A stretch of 64,000 nucleotides of DNA from Halobacteriovoraceae bacterium (GCA_963719505.1 CAVRCF010000005.1:1056001-1120000), one strand, 5' to 3'. Positions 134-30,664 are shown, numbered from the stretch's first letter. Notes: generated by a model not told the origin, from the sequence alone. Made by a program: numbers and translations.

Positions 134-1426
134 CTAGTTCTTTTGGGAAATAAAGTACTTTTCATAAAAGTAAATAATAATCATTAACACCAAAGAAATA
201 ACGATAACCGTTGGGTCATCTTTTCCTTTAACATATAAGAGACCTCCCAAGACAACGAAATCAAGTAAAAGTGAAACCTTTAATATCCAAGAAGAAAATT
301 GAACCTCGTCTCGATTAGCATTTTTAAGCACTCCAAAATGAATAAGCATGTCCATCACTAAATAGAAAAGTGCTCCCATTGCAGCAATTCTACCAACATC
401 AAATGTAATTGTTAATACACCAGCTAATACCGCGATATAAACAAGTACATGGTTTTGAACTGTTCCAGGCATTCCAAAGTGTTTATGAGGAACAAGTTCC
501 ATATCGGTCAGCATCTTTAGCATTCTTGTCACTGCAAACATACTTGCAATAATTCCAGAAACTGTAGCAATTAGTGCAACTCCAACAGTTAAGCTGACTC
601 CGAGTTCTCCCAATATTGGTCGCGAAGCCTCGGCTAGTGAATAATTCTTAGCTTTTAATATTTCCTCTAAACTGAGACTGCTACCTACTGCCAAACTGAC
701 AAGTACATAGACGACTGTACATATAGCTAAAGAGATCAAGATTGCACGCCCAACATTCTTTTTGGGTTCTACAATTTCTCCCCCACTATTGGTAATTGTC
801 GTAAACCCTTTGAAAGCTAAAACTCCAATGGCGATAGCTCCTATAAAGTTTAAAGGTGTCGTTCCCAGTTCGTTGGCATTAAGCGAAGGGAGTGAAACTC
901 CACTTGCAACTAATCCTCCAACGGCCAACAAAACCAGACCAACGGCTTTTAGAATTGCCATTACAAATGAAAAGCTTTGAATTGATTTATTACTAAGTAT
1001 ATTTATTAGAAATGAAAAGACTATAAGTCCTAAGCCCAACCACGGAATATATTCTGCACCAAGGCTTATATACTTTGATTGAACAAGATAGTTACCAAAT
1101 GTTCTTGCGACTAAACTTTGATTAATGATCATCGAGACGAGCATTAGAATTGCACCCCAAGCAGCTATAACTCCTTTGCCATAAACCTTGACGAGGATCA
1201 TTGCAATTCCACCAGACGAAGGATAACTATTAGACATTTTAATGTAAGTATAAGATGTGATGGATGAAACAATGCCTGCCCCAATAAATGCCCACATCAA
1301 TAAATTTCCAGCGTAGTTGGCTATTTGGCCAGTTAGAGCAAAGACTCCAGCACCAATCATTACACCAGTGCCCATTGAAACGGCACCAAGCAAAGAAATA
1401 TTACTTTTTGAATCAGACTTTTCCAA
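134..1426 (-). CDS. APC-family amino acid permease
   Basis: About 12 hydrophobic segments; N-terminal GxMIGAGVF motif and AFKGF...GEIVEPKKN motif typical of APC permeases; TTG start with GAGGAG RBS. Confidence 0.85.
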   Translation of the reverse strand: MEKSDSKSNISLLGAVSMGTGVMIGAGVFALTGQIANYAGNLLMWAFIGAGIVSSITSYTYIKMSNSYPSSGGIAMILVKVYGKGVIAAWGAILMLVSMIINQSLVARTFGNYLVQSKYISLGAEYIPWLGLGLIVFSFLINILSNKSIQSFSFVMAILKAVGLVLLAVGGLVASGVSLPSLNANELGTTPLNFIGAIAIGVLAFKGFTTITNSGGEIVEPKKNVGRAILISLAICTVVYVLVSLAVGSSLSLEEILKAKNYSLAEASRPILGELGVSLTVGVALIATVSGIIASMFAVTRMLKMLTDMELVPHKHFGMPGTVQNHVLVYIAVLAGVLTITFDVGRIAAMGALFYLVMDMLIHFGVLKNANRDEVQFSSWILKVSLLLDFVVLGGLLYVKGKDDPTVIVISLVLMIIIYFYEKYFISQKN

Positions 1427-1478: not shown

Positions 1479-1497
1479 TATACACCACGGGGGTATA
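1479..1497. promoter_or_regulatory. CsoR/RcnR-type operator inside a sigma70-like promoter
   Basis: TATAC-ACCACGGGG-GTATA; on the minus strand it occupies the 17-bp spacer and overlaps the -10 of ATGACA-N17-TATACT upstream of the permease. Confidence 0.7.
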
Positions 1498-2568: not shown

Positions 2569-2585
2569 ATACACTATGGGGGTAT
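2569..2585. promoter_or_regulatory. CsoR/RcnR-type operator
   Basis: ATAC-ACTATGGGG-GTAT within TTGTAT-N17-TATAAA upstream of the cytochrome lipoprotein. Confidence 0.7.
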
Positions 2586-2611
2586 GCTATAAAACGAATA
2601 TGAGAAGATCT

Positions 2612-2989
2612 ATGAAACAATTACTTGTCATTACTACTCTATCGCTGATGACTTCTTGCTATCAAGAAGTCAATTCCAATAGCTTTGACGACCGCTACTC
2701 AGTGTCTAATGGTATTGATACTAGTACAGCAAATGGTAAAAGACTCTCCGATGCATATGATGTCTTAAGTAATAAATGCATGAATTGTCACACTGGTTAT
2801 CATAATAATTGGTCAGATTTTACTACTGATTCAAAGTGGATAGAAGCAAACCTCGTTGAGTCCAATAATGCTTATCTCTCATCACTGGTGCTTCGAATGA
2901 AAAACACTGGTGGAAATATGCCTAAAGACAATCCACAAATAAAAGAAGAAGATTTTGATATTATTATTGAGTGGATCGATAATATTTAA
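2612..2989 (+). CDS. Monoheme c-type cytochrome lipoprotein
   Basis: Lipobox (LMTSC), CMNCH heme motif, distal-Met motif GNMP, terminal 'IIEWID' helix; start moved to MKQLL because the upstream ATG lies inside the operator. Confidence 0.75.
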   Translation: MKQLLVITTLSLMTSCYQEVNSNSFDDRYSVSNGIDTSTANGKRLSDAYDVLSNKCMNCHTGYHNNWSDFTTDSKWIEANLVESNNAYLSSLVLRMKNTGGNMPKDNPQIKEEDFDIIIEWIDNI

Positions 2990-3777
2990 AAATAAGTTCT
3001 TAAATCCAACCCCCAAAAGCTAGATGGATACTCATTAAGACTTCCTAGTGTGATCGCAAATGATATGTTCTCAAAACTCCATTCTCCAGAGAATTGATAT
3101 CCAAAAGAGAAACTCTCTTCCCCATCAATTCTTCCTCCTGAAGGAGCATTATAGTCGCCTCGTTTAAATAAAAGAGGAATACCAAACTTAACAAAGACTC
3201 TGTCTTTTGGTCGCCAAATAAGACTTGTCATAGACATCAATGCATCAACTGGAATGTCGCTTTGGATAAACTTTATACTATTTGAATCTTCGCCAACTGT
3301 TGCTGTGAGGTAAGCATAGCAAAGACTCGACTCAATTCCCCATAAGGCATTCATTTTTCGATAGCCACCACCTAAACATGGGCCTCTTTCTTTAGAGTTT
3401 AGAGAAGTTACATTTCCAGAAGAGTCTTTTAGTTCAAGGTCATAGTTCCAAGTTAGATAACTCAGACTAACAAAGTAGTCTGAGTTAAATTTACTTCTAT
3501 TAAACTTATCAAGTTCTACATCGTAGAGTTCATATAGTACTTCAAAGTCATACTCATCACTTTGCTCAAATGAGTCTGATTCCTCAAGCATACTGAATAG
3601 CTCTTGAAAAACAGAGGACGAAGGCTTTGTAACACCTCTTTGGATCTCTACCAGTTGTGTTTCAATCTCATGATAAAAGCTTTGTTGATTTTTAGCCTCT
3701 AGTGAGCTTGCTATAGCGGAGCTCACCTGAACAAAAGTAAAAAAAGCAATAAATATATAAATCGATCTTAAAACCAT
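2986..3777 (-). CDS. Putative outer-membrane beta-barrel protein
   Basis: Signal peptide, amphipathic beta-strand pattern, C-terminal aromatic (LRTYF); start overlaps stop of upstream gene. Confidence 0.55.
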   Translation of the reverse strand: MVLRSIYIFIAFFTFVQVSSAIASSLEAKNQQSFYHEIETQLVEIQRGVTKPSSSVFQELFSMLEESDSFEQSDEYDFEVLYELYDVELDKFNRSKFNSDYFVSLSYLTWNYDLELKDSSGNVTSLNSKERGPCLGGGYRKMNALWGIESSLCYAYLTATVGEDSNSIKFIQSDIPVDALMSMTSLIWRPKDRVFVKFGIPLLFKRGDYNAPSGGRIDGEESFSFGYQFSGEWSFENISFAITLGSLNEYPSSFWGLDLRTYF

Positions 3778-4916
3778 AAATGTAATTGTCCTGCAAAATC
3801 CCAAGAGTCATCAGTAACTGAATTGGGGCTATAACTTTTCGTGTTGTACAAATCAATTCGTAACTCAACACCCTGGACAAGGAAATACTGTAATCCAGGG
3901 CCAAGTCTATATGTTTCGGATTCCAAAGTTACATCTGGTTGAAAGTATTCACCTGTCACAAATAGATATGTTCCCCTTCGAAGTAGAATGTGGTTTTGAA
4001 CAAAAGCAAAGGAGCTCTCAACTTGTTCCTGAGTTGCCAAAAATTTCTGTCTCTTTCTTCCAAGTTCCACTAAAATACTCGAGCCTTTGGAGAGACCAAA
4101 CTTTCCATGAACAGAAAGTAAAGTATTTTCAATATAGTCAGATGTTGAGTTTAAAAATGAAAGACCTGGCTTTGATGAATTTGAAAAGTTATATTCTAAT
4201 TTTGTTGAAAAACCTTTTTGTCGAAGATCTTCAGACTGGTACAAACTTCCAATAAATCCGTTGACTCCTATCTCATATTTATCTTCGTTAAAATGTAGCA
4301 ATACTCCGTGTGATTGATCGTTTTGAGCTAGCTCAGTGACAGATCGACTAAAGGCAATATGATCTGGGACTCTAATCCCATAAACCTTATCCATCATTCC
4401 AATATAGAAACCAAAGTTATTAGTTGGTCTTAGACCTATATAATGTTCTCTGGATCGATAATTTCCAACATCCTCTCCTTTTTGTGACCTAGGTGTAGGC
4501 GCGTAGCCATAGCTAATTGATGCAATATACTTATCATTTCCCTGGAGCCGAAAAACAGTATTGATGTCAGCTTGCATGTGTATATATTCAGCCTCACTAC
4601 CGCCTTTATCTATATTTCTCTTCAAGCTTAGACCACGGTAATTTACCGAAGGTCTAATCCAAGAATTAAAGGCCTTCATATATAGGAAACCACTATCTTG
4701 TGCAATTTCATCCTCAGATTTCTCGGAGTCATGCACCCACCTATCAGAGATGGCCGTCGCAGAAACTGCTCTTCCATAATCATTTAATGGTCCATTACCA
4801 TAAGGGTTATAATGGCACGTGAGGCAAGCGTTATAGCCTTGCCCTATAAAATTGGGATAAGAATAAGAATTAAAACTAAGAAGTGTAAAAAAAAGAATGA
4901 GTGATTTTTTATTCAT
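3768..4916 (-). CDS. Monoheme cytochrome-porin fusion (Cyc2-like architecture)
   Basis: Signal peptide, then YPNFIGQGYNACLTCH...LNDYGR, then a beta-strand-rich region ending in barrel signature QLHLWF. Confidence 0.65.
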   Translation of the reverse strand: MNKKSLILFFTLLSFNSYSYPNFIGQGYNACLTCHYNPYGNGPLNDYGRAVSATAISDRWVHDSEKSEDEIAQDSGFLYMKAFNSWIRPSVNYRGLSLKRNIDKGGSEAEYIHMQADINTVFRLQGNDKYIASISYGYAPTPRSQKGEDVGNYRSREHYIGLRPTNNFGFYIGMMDKVYGIRVPDHIAFSRSVTELAQNDQSHGVLLHFNEDKYEIGVNGFIGSLYQSEDLRQKGFSTKLEYNFSNSSKPGLSFLNSTSDYIENTLLSVHGKFGLSKGSSILVELGRKRQKFLATQEQVESSFAFVQNHILLRRGTYLFVTGEYFQPDVTLESETYRLGPGLQYFLVQGVELRIDLYNTKSYSPNSVTDDSWDFAGQLHLWF

Positions 4917-4933
4917 TTGTTACTTTATACATT

Positions 4934-4968
4934 AAAAAGCACGTCTGCATTGAGAAGACGTGCTTTTT
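4934..4968. terminator. Intra-operon intrinsic terminator/stabilising hairpin
   Basis: AAAAAGCACGTCT-loop-AGACGTGCTTTTT perfect stem with A/T tracts. Confidence 0.65.
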
Positions 4969-4988
4969 CTATTTTAATTATTTAAAGA

Positions 4989-5273
4989 CTAGTTAGCTCT
5001 GTGACACTCAAATGGGTCAGTAGCATCGTGTCTGTGACAAGAATAACCAATACTTGTTCCATCAGTTAGATAAAGTTTTACACTTACACCTTGGCTCATG
5101 GGAGAAGCTTTAATACCTTTGAATAGATTGATCTGTGCAACAGTAGCGTCCGCTTCAAACTGAACTAATGAGGCCGTTACTGCTTCACTTGTATCAACTA
5201 AAACATCACCAGGATTTGCGAAAAGTCCTGTTGAAATTGTAAGAAAACTTAAAGTTAATAATAATTTCTTCAT
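4989..5273 (-). CDS. Small secreted protein with CHxH...CH putative metal-binding motif
   Basis: Signal peptide; C-terminal YSCHRHDATDPFECH; homologous to C-terminal domain of the upstream gene. Confidence 0.7.
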   Translation of the reverse strand: MKKLLLTLSFLTISTGLFANPGDVLVDTSEAVTASLVQFEADATVAQINLFKGIKASPMSQGVSVKLYLTDGTSIGYSCHRHDATDPFECHRAN

Positions 5274-5292
5274 TCTAAATTCCTTTGTTTAT

Positions 5293-6048
5293 TTATTTAT
5301 TACCCGTAAGATGGCACTCATACGGGTCACTATCTTCATGTCTGTGACATGAGTAACTCTTTATTTGATTTGCTAATGAAATATTAACTGTAACTCCATC
5401 TGCTTTTAATACTGACTCTATGCTAAGTAAAGACTGCGAGCCATCATTACTTTGAGAAGCAATAAAAGATTTAACGCTGGCACTAACTGCATCTTTTACA
5501 TTTTGTATATTTGCTAGACCAATAACAGCAGTTGGTTCTTCATCATCATCTCCCCAGTCATCATCCCAATCGTCATCATCTTCGTCATCCTCGTCGCTAG
5601 TTGGACATTCTGATGGAATCTGTTGAAGCTCATCTTTAGGTGCACAAGCTTCAATCCATTTTTTTATAAAATCAATTTCTTCCTGCTGAAGTGATCCTTC
5701 AATTGGCATATCTCCACTTTTGACCGATAAAAACAAGCGACTAATCTGAGGTTTTCCTTTAACCAATAAAGGAACAAACCTATCAATCATTGCTTTCTCA
5801 TAAGTAGAAAAGTCAATAGGATCGTTTACAGGTTTTGCATCGGGACCAGAGTGACAAGACATACACTTTGGTTTTAAAATGTATTTCTTTAAAGATTCAT
5901 AGCTCAGCGGAGCCTCACCTCTAATTAATTGATTATCTCTGACTAAATTATTTGTCTCTACAAACTCCAACTTACTTGGATTTCTCTCCATACAGCCAAA
6001 AGCCAACAGAAAAACGCTAAATATAAAAAAGATATTTGTTTTTTGCAT
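5293..6048 (-). CDS. Monoheme cytochrome c lipoprotein with acidic linker and CHxH...CH domain
   Basis: Lipobox (LAFGC), CMSCH, GDMP, poly-D/E linker, C-terminal YSCHRHEDSDPYECH. Confidence 0.75.
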   Translation of the reverse strand: MQKTNIFFIFSVFLLAFGCMERNPSKLEFVETNNLVRDNQLIRGEAPLSYESLKKYILKPKCMSCHSGPDAKPVNDPIDFSTYEKAMIDRFVPLLVKGKPQISRLFLSVKSGDMPIEGSLQQEEIDFIKKWIEACAPKDELQQIPSECPTSDEDDEDDDDWDDDWGDDDEEPTAVIGLANIQNVKDAVSASVKSFIASQSNDGSQSLLSIESVLKADGVTVNISLANQIKSYSCHRHEDSDPYECHLTGNK

Positions 6049-6083
6049 AACTAGACTATATCTCCTCAATTTATTATTTGCAA

Positions 6084-6100
6084 ATACCCAGTAGGGGTAT
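6084..6100. promoter_or_regulatory. CsoR/RcnR-type operator
   Basis: ATAC-CCAGTAGGG-GTAT just upstream of the RBS of the cytochrome/porin operon. Confidence 0.75.
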
Positions 6101-6462
6101 GGTAAATTCTACAAAGAGTGTAGAGAGTATTGACGATTTAATAAAAGAACTATGTATAAAGTATTAAATATTCAGCACCTTGGTAGCCATTACGACTTAA
6201 ATTTTTAATTGTGACACTCTTTTTACAAAACCTTCAAAAGATCAACTACACAGCAGCTACAGCAAGCCTACAAAGTGAAATTTGTCTTAGGTTGAGTCTT
6301 TTGACAATTTTATTTTTTATGTATTCTTCTTCAGTATCACTTTGTCACTGAATAAGTATTATATATCATAGAGACTGTAAGATTACCCTGAAAAACTAGT
6401 TACTTTTTGATACCACTAAAGATCTAACCAACTAACTTCATGAAGATTTAATCATTAATAAT

Positions 6463-6479
6463 GTACCCCCACCCCCTAT
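6463..6479. promoter_or_regulatory. Degenerate CsoR/RcnR-type operator
   Basis: GTAC-CCCCACCCC-CTAT; same length and C-tract but imperfect arms; upstream of the His-rich cluster. Confidence 0.35.
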
Positions 6480-6561
6480 TGAGAAGTTAGACTTTTTTCA
6501 CTGACCTTAGGACTCGGATAGAAGATATTAAACCCACAAATATTTTTCATAGGAGTTAAAA

Positions 6562-7008
6562 ATGAAAATCACACTTGCTTTTATTATATTACTAAGTTTC
6601 TCAAATGCCTTTGCTCGTTGTTACAATGCAAACCAAATTTCAAGAAGTGCTCATCAACTTGCAAATGAAGCAAGTAGATTTGACAATGTTATAGACCACA
6701 TGAATGGCTACTCTCATCTATCAAGGGAAATCCATCAACTAGAAAATGAGGCTAAACATTTTCACAGAACAGTGGAACGTGGATCAAGTTGTAACCATAT
6801 TATAAGAGACTTCAATGATGTTTCTCGAAAATTCCAACATCTATCTAGTTCACTCAGAAGAGCGCACTCAACTCACCACAACCACCATGTAATGAATGAT
6901 TTTTACAGCCTCCAACATTCTTTTCAAGACCTAAGATCAGAAGTAATGAGATTACGAGGTGGTGGACATCACGGAAATGGCGATCACTGGAAATCTGATA
7001 GTCTTTAA
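6562..7008 (+). CDS. Secreted His-rich helical protein
   Basis: Signal peptide, AGGAG RBS, repeated (A/I)HQLxNEAxxF(D/H)xxV(D/E) helices, His-rich tail. Confidence 0.75.
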   Translation: MKITLAFIILLSFSNAFARCYNANQISRSAHQLANEASRFDNVIDHMNGYSHLSREIHQLENEAKHFHRTVERGSSCNHIIRDFNDVSRKFQHLSSSLRRAHSTHHNHHVMNDFYSLQHSFQDLRSEVMRLRGGGHHGNGDHWKSDSL

Positions 7009-7045
7009 AAATCAACTTTATAACAATTAAACCTGGAATGTATTT

Positions 7046-7609
7046 ATGAAAAAGATATTACTACTTTTAACACTTTTAATTTTACCAACACTATCTTTTG
7101 CTGGCTGTAACTCATACATGATTGATAACTATGGAGACGGTGAAGTAATACAATCTTTTCGAAGTCGTGGTTTCATCTTTTCTTGTTACAGAGTTGCTAA
7201 AAAGTGTAGACGAGCTCTAGCGTTTTCTCCGGAAGACGCTGTTTGTATCGATTCAAGAGTTTTCGCATGGAAAATGGTCACTGAGTTATCTCACGATCTA
7301 GAAAAGTCATCAAAGCTACTTCATCGCAACCTAGAAAATATCTTAGGTGATCATGATGAAAGTCAGTCACCAGAAGTTAATCACTTAATTGAGTATGCCC
7401 ATGAACTGTCTGAATCCTCTAAGGAGCTCCATGAAGCCGTTGAGAGATATAGAGTTCAATCTAGAGACACAAGGTCTGAATATAATAAAGTTTTGTTTTA
7501 TATAAATAAAATAAACGCAACTTTTACACATGACCACTTCTCACATGAAACAGTCGAACTACACATGGAGATAAAAAAACTTTTTAGAGACTTAAGACGA
7601 TTTTACTAA
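7046..7609 (+). CDS. Secreted His-rich helical protein (paralog)
   Basis: Signal peptide, Cys-containing N-domain, SHDLEKSSKLLH / AHELSESSKELHEAVE repeats. Confidence 0.7.
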   Translation: MKKILLLLTLLILPTLSFAGCNSYMIDNYGDGEVIQSFRSRGFIFSCYRVAKKCRRALAFSPEDAVCIDSRVFAWKMVTELSHDLEKSSKLLHRNLENILGDHDESQSPEVNHLIEYAHELSESSKELHEAVERYRVQSRDTRSEYNKVLFYINKINATFTHDHFSHETVELHMEIKKLFRDLRRFY

Positions 7610-7637
7610 CTATTAATAAAGAACCAAAGGGTTATAA

Positions 7638-8417
7638 ATGAAGAATCTATTTCAGCCACTACTTATCGTATTTGTCATGCTTTTAGGAAGTATGTCAGCA
7701 TATGCGCATCAAATTACAATTGAAGATCTTAAACTTATTAAAGAGTTCGCCCATGATCTTGAAAAAGAATCTAAAAAGCTTCACGATCAAGTTGAGTTGA
7801 TCATTGCAACACCTACTCAAAATGATGAGGAACTGATTGAGCAACTTCATCTTTTTGAGAAATCAGCAAAACGATTCCATATGGATGTTGAAAGTCACTA
7901 CTCACAGCCAATGCTTACTAGAAATAAATTCTTCGAACTAATGACCCAATATAATATTGTGTCCAGAACGATTGAGGAATTTAATATTTACTCGCAAGTT
8001 GAAAACCAATATCTTGGAATTCTCTCATTAGTTGAATCGATAAACATCTATTATAACTTCTGGAACTATATTCAAATAAAAGAGATCGCTCATCACATTA
8101 ACAAAGTATCTAGCAAGATTTATCGCGCAATAGACTCAGATTTAACGGGTGGACGAACTTCACACGAACGAGGAGCACTGAGAGCATTGAATAATTTCAC
8201 ACTCGCTTCTCATGATTTTCATAATGGAGTGGAAGATAACTTCAGCTCTCCAGAGAATACAAGAGTGACACTAGCTCAACTTCTAGACTCACACTTTGAT
8301 GCTGAATTTGAACTGGATTACATATCTGTATCTCCATTACTTATGAATGCTTTCATTGATTTAAAAGTTGACCTAAGAAAGTTACAAGAAATATATAAAT
8401 GGAATTGGTACTTATAA
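7638..8417 (+). CDS. Secreted His-rich helical protein with two tandem domains (paralog)
   Basis: Signal peptide; AHDLEKESKKLH, LHLFEKSAKRFHMDVE, AHHINKVSSKIY, LNNFTLASHDFHNGVE. Confidence 0.7.
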   Translation: MKNLFQPLLIVFVMLLGSMSAYAHQITIEDLKLIKEFAHDLEKESKKLHDQVELIIATPTQNDEELIEQLHLFEKSAKRFHMDVESHYSQPMLTRNKFFELMTQYNIVSRTIEEFNIYSQVENQYLGILSLVESINIYYNFWNYIQIKEIAHHINKVSSKIYRAIDSDLTGGRTSHERGALRALNNFTLASHDFHNGVEDNFSSPENTRVTLAQLLDSHFDAEFELDYISVSPLLMNAFIDLKVDLRKLQEIYKWNWYL

Positions 8418-8452
8418 AAGTTTCCAACAAATTACTAAGAAAAGGAAAAAAA

Positions 8453-8888
8453 ATGAAACATTTTAATATCTTTAAAGTTTTAATTGTACTTATAACTCTA
8501 AGCTTAAGCGCTAGTGTACTTGCCTCTGACAATAACTGTCGTGGTACATACGATATGTATGACGACACCTGTTATATGGATAATGGAGAATACACCCACT
8601 ACAATTACGACAATGGAAGAAGACTCATCCATGGAAATAATGGCTCTTTTACTTTACACGACTGGAGAGGTGGAAGTCATATTGGTAGTCACTCAGGTAG
8701 ACATTACAATACTCATCAAAGCTACCGATACTCTAGAAATGTTGATCATCGCTACGGACATCAAAATCGTGGTCAATGGAAGATATGATAATCAAAATCG
8801 TGGTCATGGAAGATATGGTAATCAAAATCGCGGACACGGAAGATATGGTAATCAAAATCGTGGACATAGCCGAAGACACACCTATTAA
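8453..8888 (+). CDS. Secreted Gly/His/Arg/Asn-rich protein with NQNRGHGRYG repeats; +1 frameshift near 8775
   Basis: Signal peptide from MKHFNIF; the first repeat unit is 31 nt (ggtcaatgga) against 30 nt (ggtcatgga), and removing one A fuses ORFs 8399..8788 and 8514..8888. Confidence 0.65.
8760..8867 (+). repeat. Coding tandem repeat, about 3.6 x 30 bp
   Basis: ATCAAAATCGYGGWCAYGGAAGATATGRTA units at 8760, 8791, 8821 and partial at 8851. Confidence 0.9.
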
Positions 8889-8897
8889 CATAAACCC

Positions 8898-8927
8898 TAT
8901 GCATAGACTCGTTTCGGTCTATGCATA
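8898..8927. terminator. Hairpin, probable terminator
   Basis: TATGCATAGAC-loop-GTCTATGCATA right after the stop codon. Confidence 0.55.
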
Positions 8928-9162
8928 AAGACAATCACTAAAAAGTAATTAAATAACAGCCTTAACTAACAGGATCTTTTCACCTAGTTTTTCGGACAGC
9001 CTTACTTAGTAAATGAAAGCGCAATACAAAAGAGATCAAGTAAGAAGGAACAATCAGGTTTAATGGCGTAATTATTAGACAGTTGAAAATTCAGATAATC
9101 CCATAATCAAGTAAACTCTGACACACCAAAGACTTGCCGCTAAATCACAAGTAAATATGAGT

Positions 9163-9693
9163 TTAGTTCTCTTCTTGCCGGAGAATTAGTTTTGAATCCT
9201 TAATCCACTTATTTACTTCGAAAATCTCGTTTTCTGTCAGCCCAGAGTCCCAATGTATAATTTTATATTTCAATGGAGGCATTTCATCTTTTTTAATAGT
9301 TTTAAACAATGCATTTAGGTCATCAACTGGACTACCGTGTCCCCCGAACGGGAAGTCATGAGACATATCCATGTGTTTCTTTGCTTCTTCCATATCGTTG
9401 TCCATCGTTTGTTTTACACCCGGAATATTATAGTACCAAGGAAGGTCATTATTAACACCGTGACAAGAAAGACACTTCTTTGCAAATATCTGTTTAACAC
9501 CGTTTAAATATTTACTATTAATTTGCTCTAAAGACTCTTCTGATGGTCCATTTGAAATAATCTCAAAACCATCTGAGTCAAACTCAGTCTGTTCCATTAA
9601 TGAAGATTCATTATGCCCCCCTTCTCCGTCGGCATAAGCAGAAGAAGAAGAGAATATAAAAATCGTTGCAAAAATTGTTAGTAGCTTATTCAT
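9163..9693 (-). CDS. Heme-binding domain protein (Haem_bd-type monoheme cytochrome)
   Basis: Signal peptide, KKCLSCH, LPWYYNIPG, EMPPLKYKIIHW motifs. Confidence 0.8.
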   Translation of the reverse strand: MNKLLTIFATIFIFSSSSAYADGEGGHNESSLMEQTEFDSDGFEIISNGPSEESLEQINSKYLNGVKQIFAKKCLSCHGVNNDLPWYYNIPGVKQTMDNDMEEAKKHMDMSHDFPFGGHGSPVDDLNALFKTIKKDEMPPLKYKIIHWDSGLTENEIFEVNKWIKDSKLILRQEEN

Positions 9694-9696
9694 TAA

Positions 9697-10119
9697 CTAT
9701 TTCGCTTTTTTAATTCCATTCACGATAATCATATTCACACTACTACTAGTAAAAACTTTTCCTTTTACAGCAACTTGTTCTTCAGCATATTTTAGAAATT
9801 TTTTATTTGTTTCTCTCAAGTCGGCATGGCCTTCACCTGAGATTTGATAAATCTTGTTGTCTTTAGTTAAAATACCTATTGGAAGTCCTTTTTCGGCACA
9901 ATCTTTAAAGCAATCTTTATGATTCGACCCTTTTGAATCGTGCTTTATATAGCAAGTTAACCCTACTAGTTGTCCAGAAATTAAAACATCAGCTTTTTCA
10001 ATTGAATCATGACTTGAACTCGCCGCTTTCCCTTTGGCATGTTCTTCGTCACCATGAGCAAAAACTGAACTTGTCGACACCAATACTAATAAAGAAAAGA
10101 TTGTTAATATTTTATTCAT
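9697..10119 (-). CDS. Secreted Cys/His-motif protein, possibly metal-binding OB-fold
   Basis: GGAGG RBS before MNKILT; signal peptide, AHGDEEH, GLTCY..H..HKDCFKDCAEKGLP motif. Confidence 0.65.
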   Translation of the reverse strand: MNKILTIFSLLVLVSTSSVFAHGDEEHAKGKAASSSHDSIEKADVLISGQLVGLTCYIKHDSKGSNHKDCFKDCAEKGLPIGILTKDNKIYQISGEGHADLRETNKKFLKYAEEQVAVKGKVFTSSSVNMIIVNGIKKAK

Positions 10120-10140
10120 ACTACCTCCGATGAAAAAACG

Positions 10141-10157
10141 ATACCCCCCAAGGGTAT
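10141..10157. promoter_or_regulatory. CsoR/RcnR-type operator
   Basis: ATAC-CCCCCAAGG-GTAT in the divergent intergenic region. Confidence 0.75.
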
Positions 10158-10285
10158 GCCCAAAAAAGAAAAAATACAATACCTTATCGTATTTAACTGT
10201 TATTCGGTAAATATTGATCCTATATTTACGAATTTTCTCCTCAAACGGACCTTTAATTATCAAAGGAAACCTAATAAGATTATGT

Positions 10286-11575
10286 ATGAAGAAAGACTCA
10301 AATGATCGGAATGAAGAGATAAGCGCAGAAACTCTAAATAAAGGGTGCTCATGCATCACTTTTGATAAAGAATTACTAAAGTCAAATTTCCCTACAAATT
10401 CGCTTAAATTTCATTTATTAGAAAACTTAATCTTAACTCATCCAACAATATTTTCCTCTATAGCTGTTTTTTTATCTAAAGCGAATTACGAAATAATAAC
10501 TCAAGTCATTTTTACGATTGAAAAAATAATTAGTTCATCCTTGTATCAAGAACAAAGTTTAAATAGAATCTCAGGAATTTCTCCATTTCATTTTGGTCCA
10601 AAAGGAGTTTTTATGGGTTACGACTTTCATATCTCGAGTGAAGGTCCAAAACTGATAGAAATCAATACAAACGCTGGAGGTGCGCTGTTGAGTCTAGAAT
10701 TAGCCAAAGCCCAACAGCGCTGTTGCATATCTCAGGACTTATACCACAAGTCTACAATTGAGCTTTCTAAACTTGAATCTATATTTATCGAAATGTTTAT
10801 TAACGAGTGGAAAAGTCAAAAGGGTAATATAAAAATGGGATTAGTCGCAATTGTCGACAATGAACCTGAATCACAATTTCTCTATCCAGAGTTTCAATTA
10901 TTTCAATACCTATTTTCAGAATATAGTATTCGCTCAATTATAGTTGCCCCTCGTGACTTAAAATGGACAAATGGAAATCTAACCTTCGGCAATGAAGTAG
11001 TCGATCTCGTCTACAATAGGTTAACCGATTTTTATTTCGAAGAAGAAGAAAATAGTGATCTTCTCAGTGCTTATAAATCAGGTTCTACAGTTTTTACGCC
11101 TTCCCCTATCCATCATGCTCTTTATGCAAACAAGTTAAACCTTATCAAACTTAGTAATAAGCATGCGCTAGATAAATTAAAGGTCTCCACAAAAGATCAA
11201 GAGATACTTTTAAAAGTTATCCCCGAAACGGAAGAAGTTCTAAAAGAAAACAATTTAGAATTATGGAGTAGAAGAAAATCACTATTTTTTAAACCTATTG
11301 CCGGTTATGGTAGTAAAGCTGCCTATCGCGGAGATAAAATCACAAGGAAAGTCTGGGAACACGTACTTAACAGTAGCTATATCGCTCAAAAAATTGTTCC
11401 ACCAGGAGAAAGACTTGTAACAGTTGATAATAATAAAACAAACCTCAAGTTAGATTTAAGAGCTTATGTTTTTGATGGCAAGATACAACTTATGTCGTCA
11501 CGACTTTATTCCGGTCAGACTACTAACTTCAGAACGGAAGGTGGAGGCTTCGCTCCAGTATTTATAATTCCATAA
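10286..11575 (+). CDS. ATP-grasp-like ligase (glutathione synthetase-like/circularly permuted type)
   Basis: GYDFH...GPKLIEINTNAGG, VYNR, FFKPIAGYGSK, YIAQKIV, DLRAY, NFRTEGGG motifs; start uncertain. Confidence 0.65.
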   Translation: MKKDSNDRNEEISAETLNKGCSCITFDKELLKSNFPTNSLKFHLLENLILTHPTIFSSIAVFLSKANYEIITQVIFTIEKIISSSLYQEQSLNRISGISPFHFGPKGVFMGYDFHISSEGPKLIEINTNAGGALLSLELAKAQQRCCISQDLYHKSTIELSKLESIFIEMFINEWKSQKGNIKMGLVAIVDNEPESQFLYPEFQLFQYLFSEYSIRSIIVAPRDLKWTNGNLTFGNEVVDLVYNRLTDFYFEEEENSDLLSAYKSGSTVFTPSPIHHALYANKLNLIKLSNKHALDKLKVSTKDQEILLKVIPETEEVLKENNLELWSRRKSLFFKPIAGYGSKAAYRGDKITRKVWEHVLNSSYIAQKIVPPGERLVTVDNNKTNLKLDLRAYVFDGKIQLMSSRLYSGQTTNFRTEGGGFAPVFIIP

Positions 11576-11688
11576 TAAATAGAAATATTAGGGAGACTCC
11601 AATTTGTTTTATATTCTTATTGGATTAAGAAATGTGTGGTTTAACTCTTATCAAGTCCTTTAAAAGATAAAGTTCCTATGCCTGCCAA

Positions 11689-13850
11689 TTACCAGATATA
11701 AGAAATTCCGGCTCCTGCTCCAAAACGGCTTTCATAACTTGTAAAAATGGATAGATTCTTTGTTGCAATATATTCAAGGCCCAGGTTCCAGACATAATCT
11801 TTTTCCCAAGTAGTTATTATCTGGCAACTGTTCTTTCCAACCAAAATCATTCGTAACTTCCCAGTACCCATAAATTGCAACTCTTGAAAAAAGTAAGTAA
11901 TCCACATCGAAAGAGAGTTGAAGGTTTAAATCAGAGTCAATTCTCACATTTGAATCTACAAAGTAAGGTAAGAGCCATTTAATACCTAACGTTCCAACCG
12001 TCTCAGTCGCATCAAGTTCTTCCTCTACCTTATTTTCTGTATTTGCTCCTAAATAAACTCTAAAGTAATCAGATAAAAAACGATCATAACTTATATCCGC
12101 CTCTAGGTTTTTATTCCAACCGTATTCAGCACCGAGGTTCAATTGATTTCGTGTGTTTGAACTTGTTATTTCAATTGAACTATAATGACTTGCAGCTTTT
12201 GTCTCGGCCCATGTATACCAATGCTTATCCATGTCTAAAACATTTGATAAGTGCAAAATTATCTAACCTTGAATCTCTCTTGTCTCCATAACTAAAGATT
12301 CGCGCCATCCCTCCCTTCATATGGTAGAGAACGTGGCAGTGAAAAAACCAATCTCCCGCTTCATTTGCTGGAAATTCAATAGTTACTGACTTCATAGGTT
12401 CAACGTCTACAGTATGCTTAAGAGGAGAATATTCTCCATTTTTATTTAACACTCTGAAAAAATGTCCGTGCAGATGCATCGGATGGTGCATCATCGTTTT
12501 ATTATTTAACACAATTCGAATTACTTCACCTCGTCTAATCTTAATCTTATCGACTTCTGATAAAGTTTTCCCGTTTAAACTCCAGACATAGCGCCACATA
12601 TTTCCCGTAAGATTTAATTTAATATTTCTGACATTATTATCAGAGAGGTTTGTTTTGACAGGAGACTTTAAAATATCATAACTAAATTCTGCCTTATTAG
12701 AGTTCATCTTCTCATCCACTTCCATGTCATCACTTTTCATATTATGATCCATCATTTTATGTGATGAGTGGTCCATCTTTTTCATATTAGACATTGAGTG
12801 ATCCATTTCCATACCAGAACTCATATCCATGTTGTGATTCATGCCACCTGAGTTTTTCGTTCTCTCAATATAATCAGGAGCTTTTACGACCATCGCTTTA
12901 TGGACTTTACCACGGCCAAGTATTGCAGTGGTAAAACCCGAACCATCTTGAGCCGAAGCCCTAAATTCAATACTTCCGGCGCTAGGAATTGTAACAATAT
13001 AATCATAAGTCTCGGCAATTGCATGGAGTACTTTTGATGTCTTAACTGGAACAACATCGACACCATCAGAGGAAACCAACTTTGCATTAGCATCTCCAAT
13101 TGTCGTCCAGAAATAAGTTGAAGCTGCTGCATTTATAACTCTAACTCGAACTCTTTCACCGGCTTTTAATTCGGGGTACTGAATCCTCTTTTTACCATTA
13201 ATTAAAAATGCATCATAATAAACATCAGAAATATCTATTCCCGGCATTCTCATTTTCCAAAGCCCTAAAAGACCGCCTAAGGCTCCATTTGAGATTGCAT
13301 CAGCGATACTAACAGCCGTTTTCTTTTTTATGCTGTACCAATCACTCCCTCTTTTTAGAGTTCGCAAAACCTCATTTGGATTTTCATCTGTCCAATCAGA
13401 TAGTACAAGCACAAGATCTCTATCATATTTTAACTTTTGATTTTTAGGTTTAATAACAATTGAGCCATAAACGCCTTGTTGCTCCTGTAAACCTGTATGC
13501 GAGTGATACCAATATGTCCCCGAATGTGATATTGGAAAACGGTATGAAAACGTCTCACCGGGCCTAATAGGTGGTGTTGTTAAGTAAGGCACGCCGTCTT
13601 GAAAGTTAGGTAAAATGAGCCCATGCCAATGAATAGAGGTCTCAACATCCATATTATTAGTGACATTAATCTCAGCAGTGTCCCCCTCTGTGAATGTTAA
13701 TACCGGTCCCGGAATAGAATCATTTATGGCCATTCCCACTCTTTCTTTACCAGAGAATGAAACATTTTTTTCATCTATTGTAAGATCATAGCTTTTTGCA
13801 AAACTAGAAAGGCTTATAAGAATTGAAAGCATAAGAATGAGTAACTTCAC
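11689..13850 (-). CDS. CopA/PcoA-family multicopper oxidase with C-terminal beta-barrel-like domain; two frameshifts (about 12250 and 11810)
   Basis: HWHG, YWYHSH, HPMHLHGH, FFHCHVLYHM copper motifs; Met/His-rich insert; GTG start with GGAG RBS; barrel-like C-terminus continues in ORFs 11774..12256 and 11689..11907, ending SYIW. Confidence 0.8.
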
Positions 13851-13955
13851 ATTTTTCTCCAAATTGTATTTTTGAATTAGAATCTTTTGAGACTCTTTTA
13901 TCCAATTATTAATCACTTTAATTTCGGCTACCGTTAATTTATAGTCCAAGTGCAT
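13851..13955 (-). pseudogene. Relic of the C-terminus of a Haem_bd-type gene
   Basis: HLDYKLTVAEIKVINNWIKESQKILIQ aligns with HWDSGLTENEIFEVNKWIKDSKLILRQ of 9163..9693. Confidence 0.55.
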
Positions 13956-14138
13956 CTGTCTATAATTGCTCTATTAGTAAGGTGTAATATAAGATTGCAC
14001 ATTACGTAATATAAAACAAAAAGACTTACCATCAATATAAGAAACCAGCTCCTATATTGAATCACCCTAATGGCTAGACAAAACTGATTTCTCCGGACTT
14101 AAAACTTATTTAAAGCCTGCGTTCTACAAACAATTCTT

Positions 14139-14609
14139 TTAATATTTTTCAAATATTTTTGTGTGTCCTGTACTATCAAAAGAATAAACATTGAACTTCT
14201 CTTTATGTTTTCCATACTCCATTCCGGGACTTCCCATGGGCATATCAGGAACAACTAAACCTTTTTTACGATTTACATCTTCAAGAAATTTTTTGATGCT
14301 AGCGGCAGGAACATGTCCTTCAAAAACAAATTTCCCCATAACAGCGGTGTGGCAACTTCTTTTATCTTGCGGAACACCTAAGGAGTCCTTCATTTCTGAT
14401 AAGTTATCAATTGGTTTTTCTGTTAGTTTGAATCCATTATCCCTCATATGCTCAACCCACTTAGTGCAACATCCACAACTAGGATTTTTATAAACAATCA
14501 TTTCTTGCTCTAAGTATGAAGTTTCAGTTGTTGTTTTTGAAGTAGGAGCATCATTTGTGCAAGACACTCCAACAAACAATAAAAAGACTAAAATTAAATT
14601 TTTTCTCAT
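14139..14609 (-). CDS. DUF411/CopG-type periplasmic metal-binding lipoprotein
   Basis: YKNPSCGCCTKW, SCHTA, EGHVPA, MPMGSPGME motifs; lipobox VGVSC. Confidence 0.85.
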   Translation of the reverse strand: MRKNLILVFLLFVGVSCTNDAPTSKTTTETSYLEQEMIVYKNPSCGCCTKWVEHMRDNGFKLTEKPIDNLSEMKDSLGVPQDKRSCHTAVMGKFVFEGHVPAASIKKFLEDVNRKKGLVVPDMPMGSPGMEYGKHKEKFNVYSFDSTGHTKIFEKY

Positions 14610-14746
14610 ACCAACTCCCTGTTTGAAAAATCTTTTGTAATATTTATAATCTGAAAGCATTTCAATTTTGGATAATTTCCCACTCTCTCATCAATAAGGT
14701 TATTGACTATTTGTTGTAAATTAATTAAATTGTATTCATAGGCACC

Positions 14747-14763
14747 ATACCCCCCACTGGTAT
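14747..14763. promoter_or_regulatory. CsoR/RcnR-type operator
   Basis: ATAC-CCCCCACTG-GTAT upstream of the DUF411 gene. Confidence 0.7.
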
Positions 14764-14981
14764 ACGATGTATATGACTTTTATCAATTTTAAGAAGTAAG
14801 AGTTGTAATCGATATCTACGCATTGCTAAATGCCCAAAAGTAATTTAATCTACAAATGTGAAAGATGAAAGATCATATAGAACATTTAAGAACAAACATC
14901 CTGACAAAGCAGAGCTGTTTAATATTAATTTGGCATACAACTCGCGGTGATGATAATCTCAGGCTATTCAAAGGAGACAAA

Positions 14982-15479
14982 ATGAAGTTACTCATTATAT
15001 TCACACTTTTATTACAAGCTAATATCAGTTTCGCACTTAATAAGTCTATATCTATAGATGTAGAGCTATCCCCTGCCGGCTCTTTTAAAATAAAGTCTAA
15101 TCGAATTAAAGGAAAAGTTTATCTAAAAGATGGAAGCCTTGAAGCTAATGATATAAAAATATTAGTTAAAAACCTTAAAACAGGTATAGACCTTAGAGAT
15201 GAGCATTTAAAGAAAAAGCTTGGGATTGAAAATGATCCTAAAGCGGCTCTAAATTTGATCTCTGCGCAAGGAAAAAATGGAACTGGAAAAGGTATTTTTA
15301 AAGTCCTAGGAAAAACTCAACAGTCAACATTCACTTACAAAAAAGTTGGAAACTCCGAGATAGCCGCTTCTTTCACGCTAAGTCTCAAGGAATTTGGAAT
15401 TGATGGTGTTAGTTATATGGGTATAGGAGTCCAGGACATAGTTACAATAAATATAACCTTACCATATATAGAAAAGTAA
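14982..15479 (+). CDS. YceI-family periplasmic protein
   Basis: LKTGIDLRDEHL motif, signal peptide, AAGGAG RBS; sigma54-like TGGCA-TACAACTC-GC near 14931. Confidence 0.75.
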   Translation: MKLLIIFTLLLQANISFALNKSISIDVELSPAGSFKIKSNRIKGKVYLKDGSLEANDIKILVKNLKTGIDLRDEHLKKKLGIENDPKAALNLISAQGKNGTGKGIFKVLGKTQQSTFTYKKVGNSEIAASFTLSLKEFGIDGVSYMGIGVQDIVTINITLPYIEK

Positions 15480-17971: not shown

Positions 17972-18910
17972 TTAATGAACACAAGTCCTTTCTTCAATAA
18001 TTAGATGTTCTATGTCAAACTTACTTAATATAATATCTCTATAATATTCACTCCCCTTTAGTGAGTTATTATAAATGACAACCTCACAGGCATGGGCACT
18101 CGGAGCAATTCTCCATATATGTAAATCTGTTACCTCTACCTCCTTATCTTCTGTAAAAAGTGATTTAATCGCATCAGCATCTATTAACTTTGAATTTCCA
18201 TCAAGTAGCTCCCATACAGTAGCCTTACAAAGACCGTAGGCCCATTTCAATATAACGAGAGAACCGACGATTCCCATAACTGGATCTGCCCAAGTCCAAC
18301 CGTAATACTTACCAAGGACTAAAGCTACAATTGCTAAGACAGAGGTAAATGCATCAGCAATAACATGAACAAGAGCACTTTTATGATTATGATCATGCAC
18401 ATGATCGTCATGGTGATGATGTTTGTGACTATGGTCATGCCCATGATGATGATCGTGATCTCCAGATAACAATAATGCACTTACAAGGTTTACAATAAGC
18501 CCAAGAATTGAAACTCCAATCGCTGTTGTAAAATTTATTTGTTCAGGGTTCAGAAAACGATGAAAGGATTCAACTCCCATGAATATTGCAACTAATCCAA
18601 GCATTAATGCACTTGTATAACCTCCTAACGGAATGAACTTACCTGCTCCAAAAGTAAATTTTGAATTAAGCTTTTCTGATCTTGCTAGTTTATATGCAAT
18701 AACTGAAATACCTAAAGCTCCAACGTGGCTGGCCATATGCCAACCATCAGCGAGTAAAGCCATTGATCCAGTAATATAACCAAAATAAACTTCTACTATC
18801 ATTGTTACAAAAGTCAGTAAGACCACAAAAATGGTTCTTTTTTCATTGGAACCAATTTTATCATCTTGGATTACATAATCATGTGTATGAGTGTGTGATG
18901 CGTGTGACAT
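17972..18910 (-). CDS. dmeF: CDF-family Co/Ni efflux transporter, DmeF-like
   Basis: SMALLADGWHMASH, His-rich loop, HVIADAFTS, DLHIW motifs. Confidence 0.85.
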   Translation of the reverse strand: MSHASHTHTHDYVIQDDKIGSNEKRTIFVVLLTFVTMIVEVYFGYITGSMALLADGWHMASHVGALGISVIAYKLARSEKLNSKFTFGAGKFIPLGGYTSALMLGLVAIFMGVESFHRFLNPEQINFTTAIGVSILGLIVNLVSALLLSGDHDHHHGHDHSHKHHHHDDHVHDHNHKSALVHVIADAFTSVLAIVALVLGKYYGWTWADPVMGIVGSLVILKWAYGLCKATVWELLDGNSKLIDADAIKSLFTEDKEVEVTDLHIWRIAPSAHACEVVIYNNSLKGSEYYRDIILSKFDIEHLIIEERTCVH

Positions 18911-18918
18911 ATTTCTTC

Positions 18919-19197
18919 CTATTTCCAGTAAGTTTTTAATAATTTTATAAGTTCTAGTGAAGATTTATCCTTAGCTGACTTTGGATTCGTTTTATTTGTC
19001 ATAACATGCTCTTTAATATGATCTTCCACAAGAGACCCCATTAATCCATTTAAACCACCTCGACATGCACTAAGCGTTTGTAAGACCTCAAAACAATCCT
19101 TACCCTCTACAAGTCCTCTTTCTACTGCTTCAAGCTGTCCTTTAATTCTCTTAATTCGTGAAATGATCTTTTTGTTATCTTCAGCTAAATGCCCCAT
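18919..19197 (-). CDS. CsoR/RcnR-family metal-sensing repressor, RcnR/DmeR type
   Basis: RIKRIKGQLEAV...C35...H60..H64 plus H3, giving the H-C-H-H fingerprint; co-oriented with the CDF gene. Confidence 0.9.
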   Translation of the reverse strand: MGHLAEDNKKIISRIKRIKGQLEAVERGLVEGKDCFEVLQTLSACRGGLNGLMGSLVEDHIKEHVMTNKTNPKSAKDKSSLELIKLLKTYWK

Positions 19198-22184: not shown

Positions 22185-22435
22185 TGGAACGATTTCCAAA
22201 ATTCTTAAGTACAAATCCAGTGATTTATGGACTGAGTTTCTATGAGATCGGAGCATTAGTATTAGCTCTATACATTGCAATGATACTAAATCTTTCCTCT
22301 TTTCACAGTTTGATAATTTGTTTGGGATTTATCATTGTTATCAAATTCATTAAAAAGAACTTTGACCTAAAAGGCTTTTTATCTAAAAAATCTAATCAAA
22401 TGGATTTAACACAATTTAAAGGTGGTCGAAAATGA
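22184..22435 (+). CDS. VirB3-like small membrane protein
   Basis: TAATG coupling; PxxxYGL followed by two TM segments; positional. Confidence 0.55.
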   Translation: MERFPKFLSTNPVIYGLSFYEIGALVLALYIAMILNLSSFHSLIICLGFIIVIKFIKKNFDLKGFLSKKSNQMDLTQFKGGRK

Positions 22436-26304: not shown

Positions 26305-26306
26305 AT

Positions 26307-26756
26307 ATGGATTTTGATAGCTACAAAGCATCCTACTTAAAAGAGAATAAAAAACTTAAAGTCGCATTAGCAATTACTCTTATTGTCACATCACTAACGA
26401 CATTAAGTGTTTTTCTTCAACAAAAGCATTATCTTTACAAAGGAAAAGCAATATTTGAGGAAAGACTTTTATCTGTAGAAGTTTGTCGTATTGGATTTGA
26501 AAGTTTAGCAAGTAATGAGCCAAATTCTTATGTGATAACGGACGGAATTTTAGATTTAGTTAACAAATCCCCTTTTTCACTCATTATAGATAAAATACTC
26601 AAGCTAGAATCGCTGGAAGAGAAGTCTTGTAAAATTATTCTAAAATCAGAGGGTAAGTTACTAGCATTCAAGATCAACTTAGAAGAGAGCATCTTTTATC
26701 CATTTCATTATAAAATCATTCAACTAGACGAGCTTGCAATCAAAGAGGAACTATAA
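26307..26756 (+). CDS. VirB8-like bitopic protein
   Basis: Single N-terminal TM; positional. Confidence 0.4.
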   Translation: MDFDSYKASYLKENKKLKVALAITLIVTSLTTLSVFLQQKHYLYKGKAIFEERLLSVEVCRIGFESLASNEPNSYVITDGILDLVNKSPFSLIIDKILKLESLEEKSCKIILKSEGKLLAFKINLEESIFYPFHYKIIQLDELAIKEEL

Positions 26757-27226: not shown

Positions 27227-27246
27227 GTAACAAAAAAGGCATTTAT

Positions 27247-29870: not shown

Positions 29871-29896
29871 TAAGCATAAAAGTTTAAGGAGAAGCA

Positions 29897-30655: not shown

Positions 30656-30664
30656 ACATTTCCA

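Follow-up and report, generated by a model that had tools for sequence, protein, structure and literature searches.

The 64,000-nucleotide (nt) stretch analysed here (GCA_963719505.1 CAVRCF010000005.1:1056001-1120000, hereafter the window) comes from a Halobacteriovoraceae bacterium, a marine predatory bacterium, and carries on its minus strand, at 3768..4916 within a copper-resistance island, a gene whose product of 382 residues joins a Cyc2-like cytochrome with one haem to a porin of 16 strands. The family to which this cytochrome-porin belongs is, to judge from profile comparisons, very likely a distant homologue of the outer-membrane iron oxidase Cyc2, and it is a sister family of Cyc2, not a part of it. 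We lean towards the reading that the window copy works in a Cyc2-like module controlled by CsoR, which would be induced by copper and would let electrons flow inward from a reduced metal via the haem.

The product of 3768..4916 begins with MNKKSLILFFTLLSFNSYS and continues with YPNFIGQGYNACLTCH...PLNDYGR, and its C-terminus reads ...QLHLWF. A signal-like leader of 19 residues precedes the mature N-terminus YPNFIGQGYNACLTCHYNPYGNGPLNDYGR, and the haem motif CLTCH occupies residues 31-35. The 43 family members that were aligned are 27-72% identical to the window protein; every row of the alignment has C31, C34 and H35, and the N-terminal consensus is A-Y-P-x-F-I-G-x-G-Y-x-S-C-x-T-C-H-Y-N-P-x-G-N-G-P-L-x-D-Y-G-R-A. 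The AlphaFold2 model built from this alignment (predicted local distance difference test (pLDDT) 90.9, predicted template modelling score (pTM) 0.86) has a short helical N-terminal domain at about residues 20-80, with helices over 21-73, followed by 16 strands, and because the pTM is high it suggests that the haem domain packs against the barrel or sits at the pore. When the model was compared with the PDB using Foldseek, 16-strand porins were retrieved (OmpT 6ehe, E 1.4e-12, as well as OprP 2o4v and OprO 4rjw), in agreement with the barrel that an earlier reading of the DNA, made from the sequence only, had anticipated.

Sequence searches place the protein in a large and mostly unnamed family. 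A word-indexed search returned 819 proteins at E <= 1e-3, of which few had named sources (Halobacteriovorax, Bdellovibrionales, Bacteriovoracaceae and Oligoflexales), and an exhaustive search returned 844 cluster representatives, 163 of them below 1e-30; among the 150 representatives listed, most were about 350-420 residues long, the rest being fragments and one form of 658 residues. Pfam and NCBIfam gave no match for the cytochrome-porin, nor for the 8-strand barrel and the CHxH proteins described below, and a sequence profile search of the PDB with the cytochrome-porin gave matches at chance level only (best E 0.08). The nearest named cluster in the ESM Atlas was Porin_O_P, a family found on 12% of the members and to be taken as a lead only, and the other clusters were unnamed.

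In excerpts of Keffer et al. (2021; PMC8406198), Cyc2 is defined by a signal peptide, one CxxCH, the motif AXPXFAR[Q/K][T/Y] upstream of it, PXL downstream of it and a 16-strand porin of at least 365 residues, and iron oxidation by Cyc2 is stated to have been shown experimentally; the templates given for Cyc2 there, and in excerpts of PMC13741234, are OprO and OprP. The protein at 3768..4916 has the signal peptide, the single N-terminal CxxCH, the 16-strand porin and the length of this definition. To obtain a canonical Cyc2 set, species genomes were scanned for the back-translated motif, and 64 of the 65 full-length proteins were aligned; the genomes with the motif include those of Mariprofundus and other Zetaproteobacteria, Acidithiobacillus and Chlorobiaceae. 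Comparison of the family with these 64 sequences by hhalign gave 96.0% (E 4e-9) over 332 columns at full length, 95.4% (E 1.8e-8) over 33 columns for the N-terminal domains alone and 46% (E 2e-4) for the barrels alone, whereas reversed or mismatched controls gave 0.1-2.3% (0.4-2.3% for the reversed controls).

As in the Cyc2 of Acidithiobacillus, Cyc2PV-1 of Mariprofundus and Cyt572 of Leptospirillum, the signal peptide is cleaved just ahead of the haem motif, the only CxxCH lies at the mature N-terminus, Pro and an aromatic residue stand at -10 and -8 from the first Cys, and L-[NT]-x-aromatic-G-R follows the haem His; these proteins also have in common a 16-strand porin with an OprO/OprP-like fold and a length of 380-480 residues. 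A P(x)L..aromatic-G pattern within 16 residues was found in 30 of the 43 family members and in 54 of the 64 canonical Cyc2. In the window protein, G-P-L-x-D-Y-G-R begins 8 residues past the haem His, compared with 4 in Cyc2. The MtrAB, MtoAB and PioAB conduits likewise combine an outer-membrane barrel with c-type haem for trans-membrane electron transfer, but according to excerpts of PMC13741234 they do so with separate decahaem proteins in 26-strand barrels, whereas here one haem is fused to a 16-strand barrel.

Of 151 sampled genomes of the Bdellovibrionota, 78 contain the family, which is represented in 50 of 100 genera and is frequently multicopy; the genome studied here has three copies. 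Its usual partners were determined from 20 loci of other genomes and the two other loci of this genome, each taken with 6 kb on either side (n = 22, 289 kb in all; chromosomal-type loci hereafter). A small barrel gene directly follows the cytochrome-porin gene in 12 of the 22, often with an overlap of about 37 nt as in the window, YceI lies near in 14, and a cytochrome c lipoprotein of 120-130 residues is nearby in about half; many other neighbours are CxxCH proteins without a family. All these partners have counterparts in the window. The gene at 2576..2989 (plus strand; likely start 2612 from the alignment) encodes the small cytochrome c lipoprotein, with one haem, that accompanies the porin as a conserved partner across the phylum. 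The lipoprotein contains the haem motif CMNCH as well as a lipobox Cys and an invariant Met-Pro; the Met-Pro together with CxxCH fits His/Met ligation. The outer-membrane barrel gene at 2986..3804 (minus strand) overlaps the cytochrome-porin gene by 37 nt, and its product has an N-terminal helical part. In the model of this protein the N-terminal helices are weakly predicted, and residues 107-271 form an 8-strand barrel with pLDDT above 90 that matches Ail, OmpX and OmpA. A YceI-like protein, encoded at 14865..15479 (plus strand), completes the conserved module as its fourth member.

Some chromosomal copies (L128, L129, L131 and G000:C1:337001-351000) lie in a bigger cluster with CxxCH proteins of about 380 and 450 residues, proteins of 240 and 490 residues and a signal-peptidase-II-like gene, a cluster of haem-protein genes in predatory bacteria for which we know of no description.

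The link to copper was found when metagenome contigs were scanned for close relatives of 3768..4916, which gave 28 loci; because many of the contigs are short, genes missing from these loci mean little. A gene for a CHxH protein of 91-105 residues lies directly upstream of the cytochrome-porin gene in 16 of the 28, namely in all 15 loci at 61% identity or more and in one short locus. L168 differs in that its CHxH gene lies 5 kb off and its cytochrome-porin gene has a box of its own. The gene order of the window is found in these 16 loci, which are independent of one another and show 54-79% identity. Twelve of them also have an acidic-tail cytochrome c lipoprotein, and the remaining contigs stop short of its gene. 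At least one strict box of the CsoR type described below was present in 12 of the 16 CHxH loci, as against none of the 12 loci without CHxH, and these boxes typically stand just ahead of the acidic-tail cytochrome gene and again ahead of YceI. A multicopper oxidase gene was found in 5 of the 16, and a CsoR gene with the C-H-C pattern in 4 (L162, L168, L170 and L171), where it adjoins the module and is divergent from the YceI and small cytochrome genes with a box between them. A FastTree phylogeny separated the 12 full-length copper-linked porins, including that of the window, from all other rows by a single split. In a more careful tree, with 23 rows, the protein of the window fell among chromosomal copies of the same bacterial family, the nearest at 51% identity (unstarred support 89/80).

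The two proteins that characterize this sub-clade are both encoded in the window on the minus strand. The secreted CHxH protein of 94 residues (4989..5273) ends in CHRH...ECH, a candidate metal site, and the C-terminal motif Y-x-C-H-R-H-x4-P-F-E-C-H is invariant in 12 of 12 such proteins. The acidic-tail cytochrome c lipoprotein (5293..6069) has CMSCH, Met-Pro, a poly-acidic tail and a C-terminal CHRH...ECH. CxxCH, Met-Pro and two further Cys are common to the acidic-tail cytochromes, and the fusion of a second CHxH domain was seen in the window copy only. Word-based searches gave only two proteins for the 8-strand barrel and one for the CHxH protein, and their relatives were obtained via the locus searches. 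Taken together, the loci indicate a sub-clade in which the four-gene module appears to have gained two further periplasmic proteins, the acidic-tail cytochrome and the CHxH protein, and to have come under CsoR. The cytochrome c lipoprotein, the CHxH protein and the second barrel that the sequence-only reading had placed beside the cytochrome-porin are therefore all present. To our knowledge, these partners (8-strand barrel, YceI, lipoprotein cytochromes and CHxH protein) and the control by CsoR are not those of Cyc2 operons.

The operator of CsoR type, TACMCNNNNNKGGTA (TACCC-N5-GGGTA), occurs at five sites in the window, at 1481, 2570, 6085, 10142 and 14748, compared with 0.12 +/- 0.36 in shuffled sequences, of which none in 100 reached five. 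Apart from this region, the only cluster of G/C-rich versions of the box in the genome lies in a second metal island, on contig C2. The box at 1481..1495 (TACACCACGGGGGTA) is upstream of a permease gene (134..1426, minus strand), and that at 2570..2584 (TACACTATGGGGGTA) lies about 28 nt ahead of the likely start of the small cytochrome. The third, at 6085..6099 (TACCCAGTAGGGGTA), abuts a promoter-like site (6084-6055, minus strand) of the gene string that runs from 6069 down to 2986. The box at 10142..10156 (TACCCCCCAAGGGTA) stands before the genes for the 141-residue and Haem_bd proteins described below and has an identical counterpart ahead of the same gene pair in genome G133 (L154), and the last, at 14748..14762 (TACCCCCCACTGGTA), is located between the divergent DUF411 and YceI genes.

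Four genes of the CsoR/RcnR family are present in the genome, and one of them, a PF02583 gene at C5:1054962-1055207, is only 0.8 kb left of the window and shows the pattern C...H-x3-C (C-H-C). Most CsoR proteins are of the C-H-C type and CsoR binds G/C-tract palindromes, as stated in excerpts of PMC10141476. The arrangement here resembles the cso regulon of Mycobacterium tuberculosis and the copZA regulon of Bacillus subtilis in its C-H-C repressor and in having G/C-tract palindromes flanked by TA(C) at copper-gene promoters. Those known regulons control an exporter ATPase and a chaperone, whereas the boxes here also precede genes for haem proteins and outer-membrane proteins. Independent metagenome loci show the same set of genes together with boxes and a C-H-C CsoR gene. 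The metal control foreseen by the sequence-only reading is thus supported, and the predicted copper control of the window module is well supported.

A stem-loop lies between the CHxH and cytochrome-porin genes at 4934..4970 (minus strand; -18.3 kcal/mol, z -4.7) and is followed by UUUUU. Stem-loops of -8 to -23 kcal/mol were found at this junction in 16 of 16 loci (the window and the set L161-L172, L179, L185, L186 and L188), with stem sequences unrelated among loci and mostly no U-run, so that the structure is conserved and the sequence is not. A plain terminator that breaks the operon was considered for 4934-4970 and dropped, since the stem-loop is at the same place in all 16 loci, mostly without the U-run. 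From this pattern we infer a conserved element that would set the ratio of upstream to downstream products, by partial termination or by stabilisation of the transcript.

On the reading that we favour, a rise of cytoplasmic Cu(I) would take CsoR off the boxes, and the module would be made along with the oxidase-CopB fusion and the DUF411 protein. The haem, which would sit at the periplasmic mouth of the pore, would then accept an electron from a reduced metal. The likeliest metal would be Cu(I), perhaps passed on by the CHxH protein, with Fe(II) as the alternative, and the electron would pass through the lipoprotein cytochromes to the respiratory chain. The computations show the gene content, the fold, the remote homology, the boxes and the linkage to CsoR; that copper induces the module, that electrons flow inward and that a reduced metal is the substrate is what we infer. 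A narrower proposal, which we put forward tentatively and regard as rather unlikely, is an outer-membrane haem-based cuprous oxidase, in which the CHxH protein would capture Cu(I) and the porin and cytochromes would feed the electron to the respiratory chain, detoxifying the metal without the O2-dependent multicopper oxidase and possibly with some gain of energy.

A number of results weigh against this reading, some concerning the kinship to Cyc2 and others the role of copper. Plain hidden Markov model (HMM) cross-scores between the family and Cyc2 were weak in both directions (at most 19 bits on the 43 aligned members), and the HMM of the 64 canonical sequences gave the window protein 12.3 bits. 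In favour of the kinship, the same HMM gave 33.7 bits to the paralogue C1:343277-344437 of the same genome, which was the sole match of the Cyc2 profile over the six frames of that genome (E 0.0016 and 0.014 at its two ends). FAR was present in none of the 43 family members, compared with all 64 canonical Cyc2, which had been chosen by that motif, and P-x-[F/Y] at the Cyc2 spacing was found in 27 of the 43. Where Cyc2 has A-R-[Q/K] of PxFAR[Q/K][T/Y], this family has I-G-x; the stretch from CH to PL is 3-4 residues longer, and the hosts are aerobic predators, not lithotrophs. Because the defining FAR motif is absent, the family is not to be filed as Cyc2; the architecture and the remote homology of the Cyc2-like cytochrome-porin proposed from the sequence are supported.

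As to copper, no homologue of the oxidase, CopB, DUF411 or the cation diffusion facilitator (CDF) exporter was found within 6 kb of the porin gene in the 22 chromosomal-type loci, a Pfam search of 82 neighbours from 12 of these loci gave no metal-resistance family, and no strict TACCC-N5-GGGTA box occurs in their 289 kb. Because the contexts of most members lack metal genes, the ancestral role of the family is probably not copper-specific, and the expected conservation of a metal-gene neighbourhood is seen in one sub-clade but not family-wide. The split that sets the copper-linked porins apart has weak support (0.59 in FastTree), and these porins lack the enrichment in Met and His that is common among envelope proteins that bind Cu(I) (M+H 5.25% vs 5.08%). 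The oxidase-barrel gene is unlinked to the cytochrome-porin gene in genomes G107 and G133. In the window itself, the operator is shared by most units through the five boxes, as the sequence-only reading had noted, but the cytochrome-porin gene has no box of its own and the Ni/Co-type unit described below has a different one. Moreover, induction of the porin could be damped, because a strong hairpin with a U-run separates its gene from the boxed genes upstream.

Much of this would suit a general envelope electron-transfer system of predatory Bdellovibrionota acting on a non-metal substrate, such as a redox compound that is soluble in lipid or comes from the prey. YceI would then bind an isoprenoid or a quinone, and the copper-regulated copy would be a stress replacement for carriers damaged by copper. 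The occurrence of the family in about half of the sampled phylum genomes, the lack of Met/His enrichment, and the 22 chromosomal-type and 12 metagenome loci that hold YceI, cytochrome c and other CxxCH proteins without metal genes or boxes speak for it, as do the electron-transfer genes noted in predatory classes in excerpts of the preprint 10.1101/2022.03.26.485925. We give this explanation a small but real chance. The sub-clade, however, gained two dedicated proteins, one of them with an invariant Cys/His motif, and is tightly linked to CsoR and copper oxidase genes, and because of these additions and this linkage a metal-directed role fits better than a spare copy.

It is improbable, in our judgement, that the protein acts mainly as a porin, that is, as a narrow haem-plugged channel swapped in under copper stress to limit metal entry, the haem being structural or a sensor. 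The barrel is indeed of the general-porin type, the pTM suggests that the N-terminal domain is packed on it, and copper-regulated changes of outer-membrane permeability are reportedly brought about by ComR/ComC in Escherichia coli. Yet throughout the phylum the protein is strictly paired with a cytochrome c lipoprotein of the His/Met type, which points to electron transfer, as does the homology to Cyc2, a proven iron oxidase according to excerpts of PMC8406198. The direction of electron flow in a monohaem conduit is not set by sequence, and several more CxxCH proteins surround the family in chromosomal loci, which leaves room for an outward flow with the conduit reducing an oxidant outside the cell or in the periplasm (Cu(II), Fe(III) or peroxide) as a reductase or peroxidase. 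To this we attach little probability, given that production of Cu(I) under copper stress would be harmful and that the co-regulated multicopper oxidase and DUF411 protein act on the oxidising side. Finally, genes nearby are split (oxidase-CopB and Lon) and the island bears duplication scars, as might be expected if the island copy were an inert or decaying passenger with no metal role. This we hold to be very improbable; the ORF (open reading frame) at 3768..4916 is intact and keeps all the invariant residues of the family, no indels appear in it where short-read contigs overlap parts of it, and its gene order is that of the 16 independent loci.

The oxidase expected to be made with the module is a CopA-type multicopper oxidase fused to a CopB-like barrel (11689..13955, minus strand), which the assembly presents in three frames split at about 12251 and 11813. 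The assembled oxidase frame (12225..13955, minus strand) stops after 576 residues, and the CopB-like part continues in the two other frames. The oxidase matches Cu-oxidase_3 (E 3.8e-49), Cu-oxidase (E 2.6e-13) and Cu-oxidase_2 (E 9.6e-38), as well as TIGR01480 (copper_res_A; E 5.4e-126) with 421 bits, below the cut-off of 479 bits, and the match of the barrel tail to CopB (PF05275) is weak (E 0.0079). The tail has eight matches in other Bdellovibrionota (six genomes), and each of them belongs to an open frame 696-782 residues long. Short-read contigs from two runs of one sample, which represent a close, non-identical allele (about 10 differences per 300-380 bases), have one base fewer at both 12251 and 11813, and the window without those two bases gives a single frame of 754 residues. 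These comparisons indicate that the fusion is real in the lineage; the copy of this strain may be broken or mis-assembled. Assembly indels are suggested by a Lon protease gene split into three ORFs (60813-63242, minus strand) and by a genome completeness of 83.5%. Accordingly, the barrel-fused oxidase of the sequence-only reading exists as such in relatives, but in the assembly it is split, and it is not consistently linked to the porin (5 of the 16 sub-clade loci). It resembles CopA-CopB (PcoA-PcoB) in having a copper_res_A-type oxidase with three cupredoxin domains and a CopB-like barrel, and differs from them in being one polypeptide in this lineage; we know of no description of such a fusion, though no literature search was aimed at it.

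Next to it, a DUF411 (CopG-type) protein is encoded at 14139..14660 (minus strand). The region 9163..10122 (minus strand) encodes a CxxCH protein of the Haem_bd family (9163..9693; PF14376, E 1.7e-24) and, upstream of it, a protein of 141 residues without a family match. The Haem_bd cytochrome and a Cys/His-containing protein of 133-141 residues form a conserved pair (window 9163-10156; L154 14105-15064; L155 11705-12570), and in G133 this pair is under the identical box, directly upstream of the oxidase-CopB gene. Along with the small cytochrome at 2576..2989, these genes account for the further CxxCH proteins, the oxidase and the DUF411 protein that had been noted near the cytochrome-porin.

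A unit at 17972..19197 (minus strand) encodes a repressor of RcnR type (18934..19197; H-C-H-H) and a His-rich CDF exporter. The box of this unit, TACTATACCCCAGTA at 19223-19237, is its own and differs from the CsoR boxes. The H-C-H-H pattern is the fingerprint of the Ni/Co regulator RcnR; the best NCBIfam matches of the repressor are FrmR (72 bits) and RcnR (57 bits), both below their cut-offs. The unit is a separate one of the Ni/Co type, distinct from the CsoR boxes. A copy of the CDF exporter with 79% identity lies in the C2 island. In the same second metal island, L157 3198-5093 (G000:C2:207198-209093) encodes a protein of 632 residues that joins a cytochrome c domain to an FTR1 iron permease domain.

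Envelope and metal genes are dense in the first 19 kb of the window, where the G+C (0.33-0.36) is lower than at about 34-46 kb (0.36-0.40). To the left of the window are the CsoR gene, an oxidase of 715 residues, a P-type ATPase, mer genes and a sigma-54 activator gene. On the right, 22432..32498 (plus strand) contains conjugation genes (a VirB4/TraC-like ATPase, VirB9, TrbI/VirB10 and a TraD coupling protein) and a tyrosine-recombinase fragment of 229 residues, which adjoins a transposase to the right of the island; no relaxase was recognised among these conjugation genes. A mobile origin of the metal island is plausible. The module had been read as cargo of an integrative and conjugative element, and the adjoining conjugation genes agree with this, but the integrase is present as the fragment only, and neither a relaxase nor the ends were found.

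Direct repeats at 1325-1743 and 17381-17799 (73-86% identity, spacing about 16,056 bp) flank the 16-kb metal module, each spanning the 5' end of the permease gene, the boxed upstream region and the 3' end of an amidotransferase gene, and they look like a scar of recombination between two related islands. The latter gene, which is Peptidase_C26/glutamine-amidotransferase-like (1554-2420, minus strand), occurs within or beside the copper-linked module in three loci (also L161 2501-3379 and L171 2501-3412). The sequence of its start codon region, ATGTATAAA, is repeated at 4921-4932 and 6152-6163, and these copies are possible junction remnants. Four or five secreted His-rich ORFs without a family match lie at 6562-8888 (plus strand) and end in 30-nt tandem repeats that code for GRYGNQNRGH units; short-read contigs have TG inserted after 8775, which makes the frame of the last of them uncertain. 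The ORF of 453 residues at 10214..11575 had no match in Pfam or NCBIfam.

In the literature, exclusive of supplements such as the figshare Cyc2 tree and alignment files, we found neither this family nor the CHxH proteins described, and no report of CsoR control of a Cyc2-like protein. Cyc2, recognised by its FAR motif, serves as the main marker for iron oxidisers in genomes and metagenomes, and a filter on this motif excludes a large sister family of the same build that occurs in aerobic predators. One branch of this family apparently answers to a copper sensor, along with novel proteins that have a Cys/His motif or an acidic tail. Two lesser additions are the fusion of oxidase and CopB and the conserved hairpin between cistrons. 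If this branch oxidises Cu(I) or Fe(II), it would be a haem-based arm of copper defence and would give a Cyc2-type protein a role beyond energy metabolism. If it is a cuprous oxidase, conduits of the Cyc2 type would extend from iron lithotrophy to the metal defence of predators.

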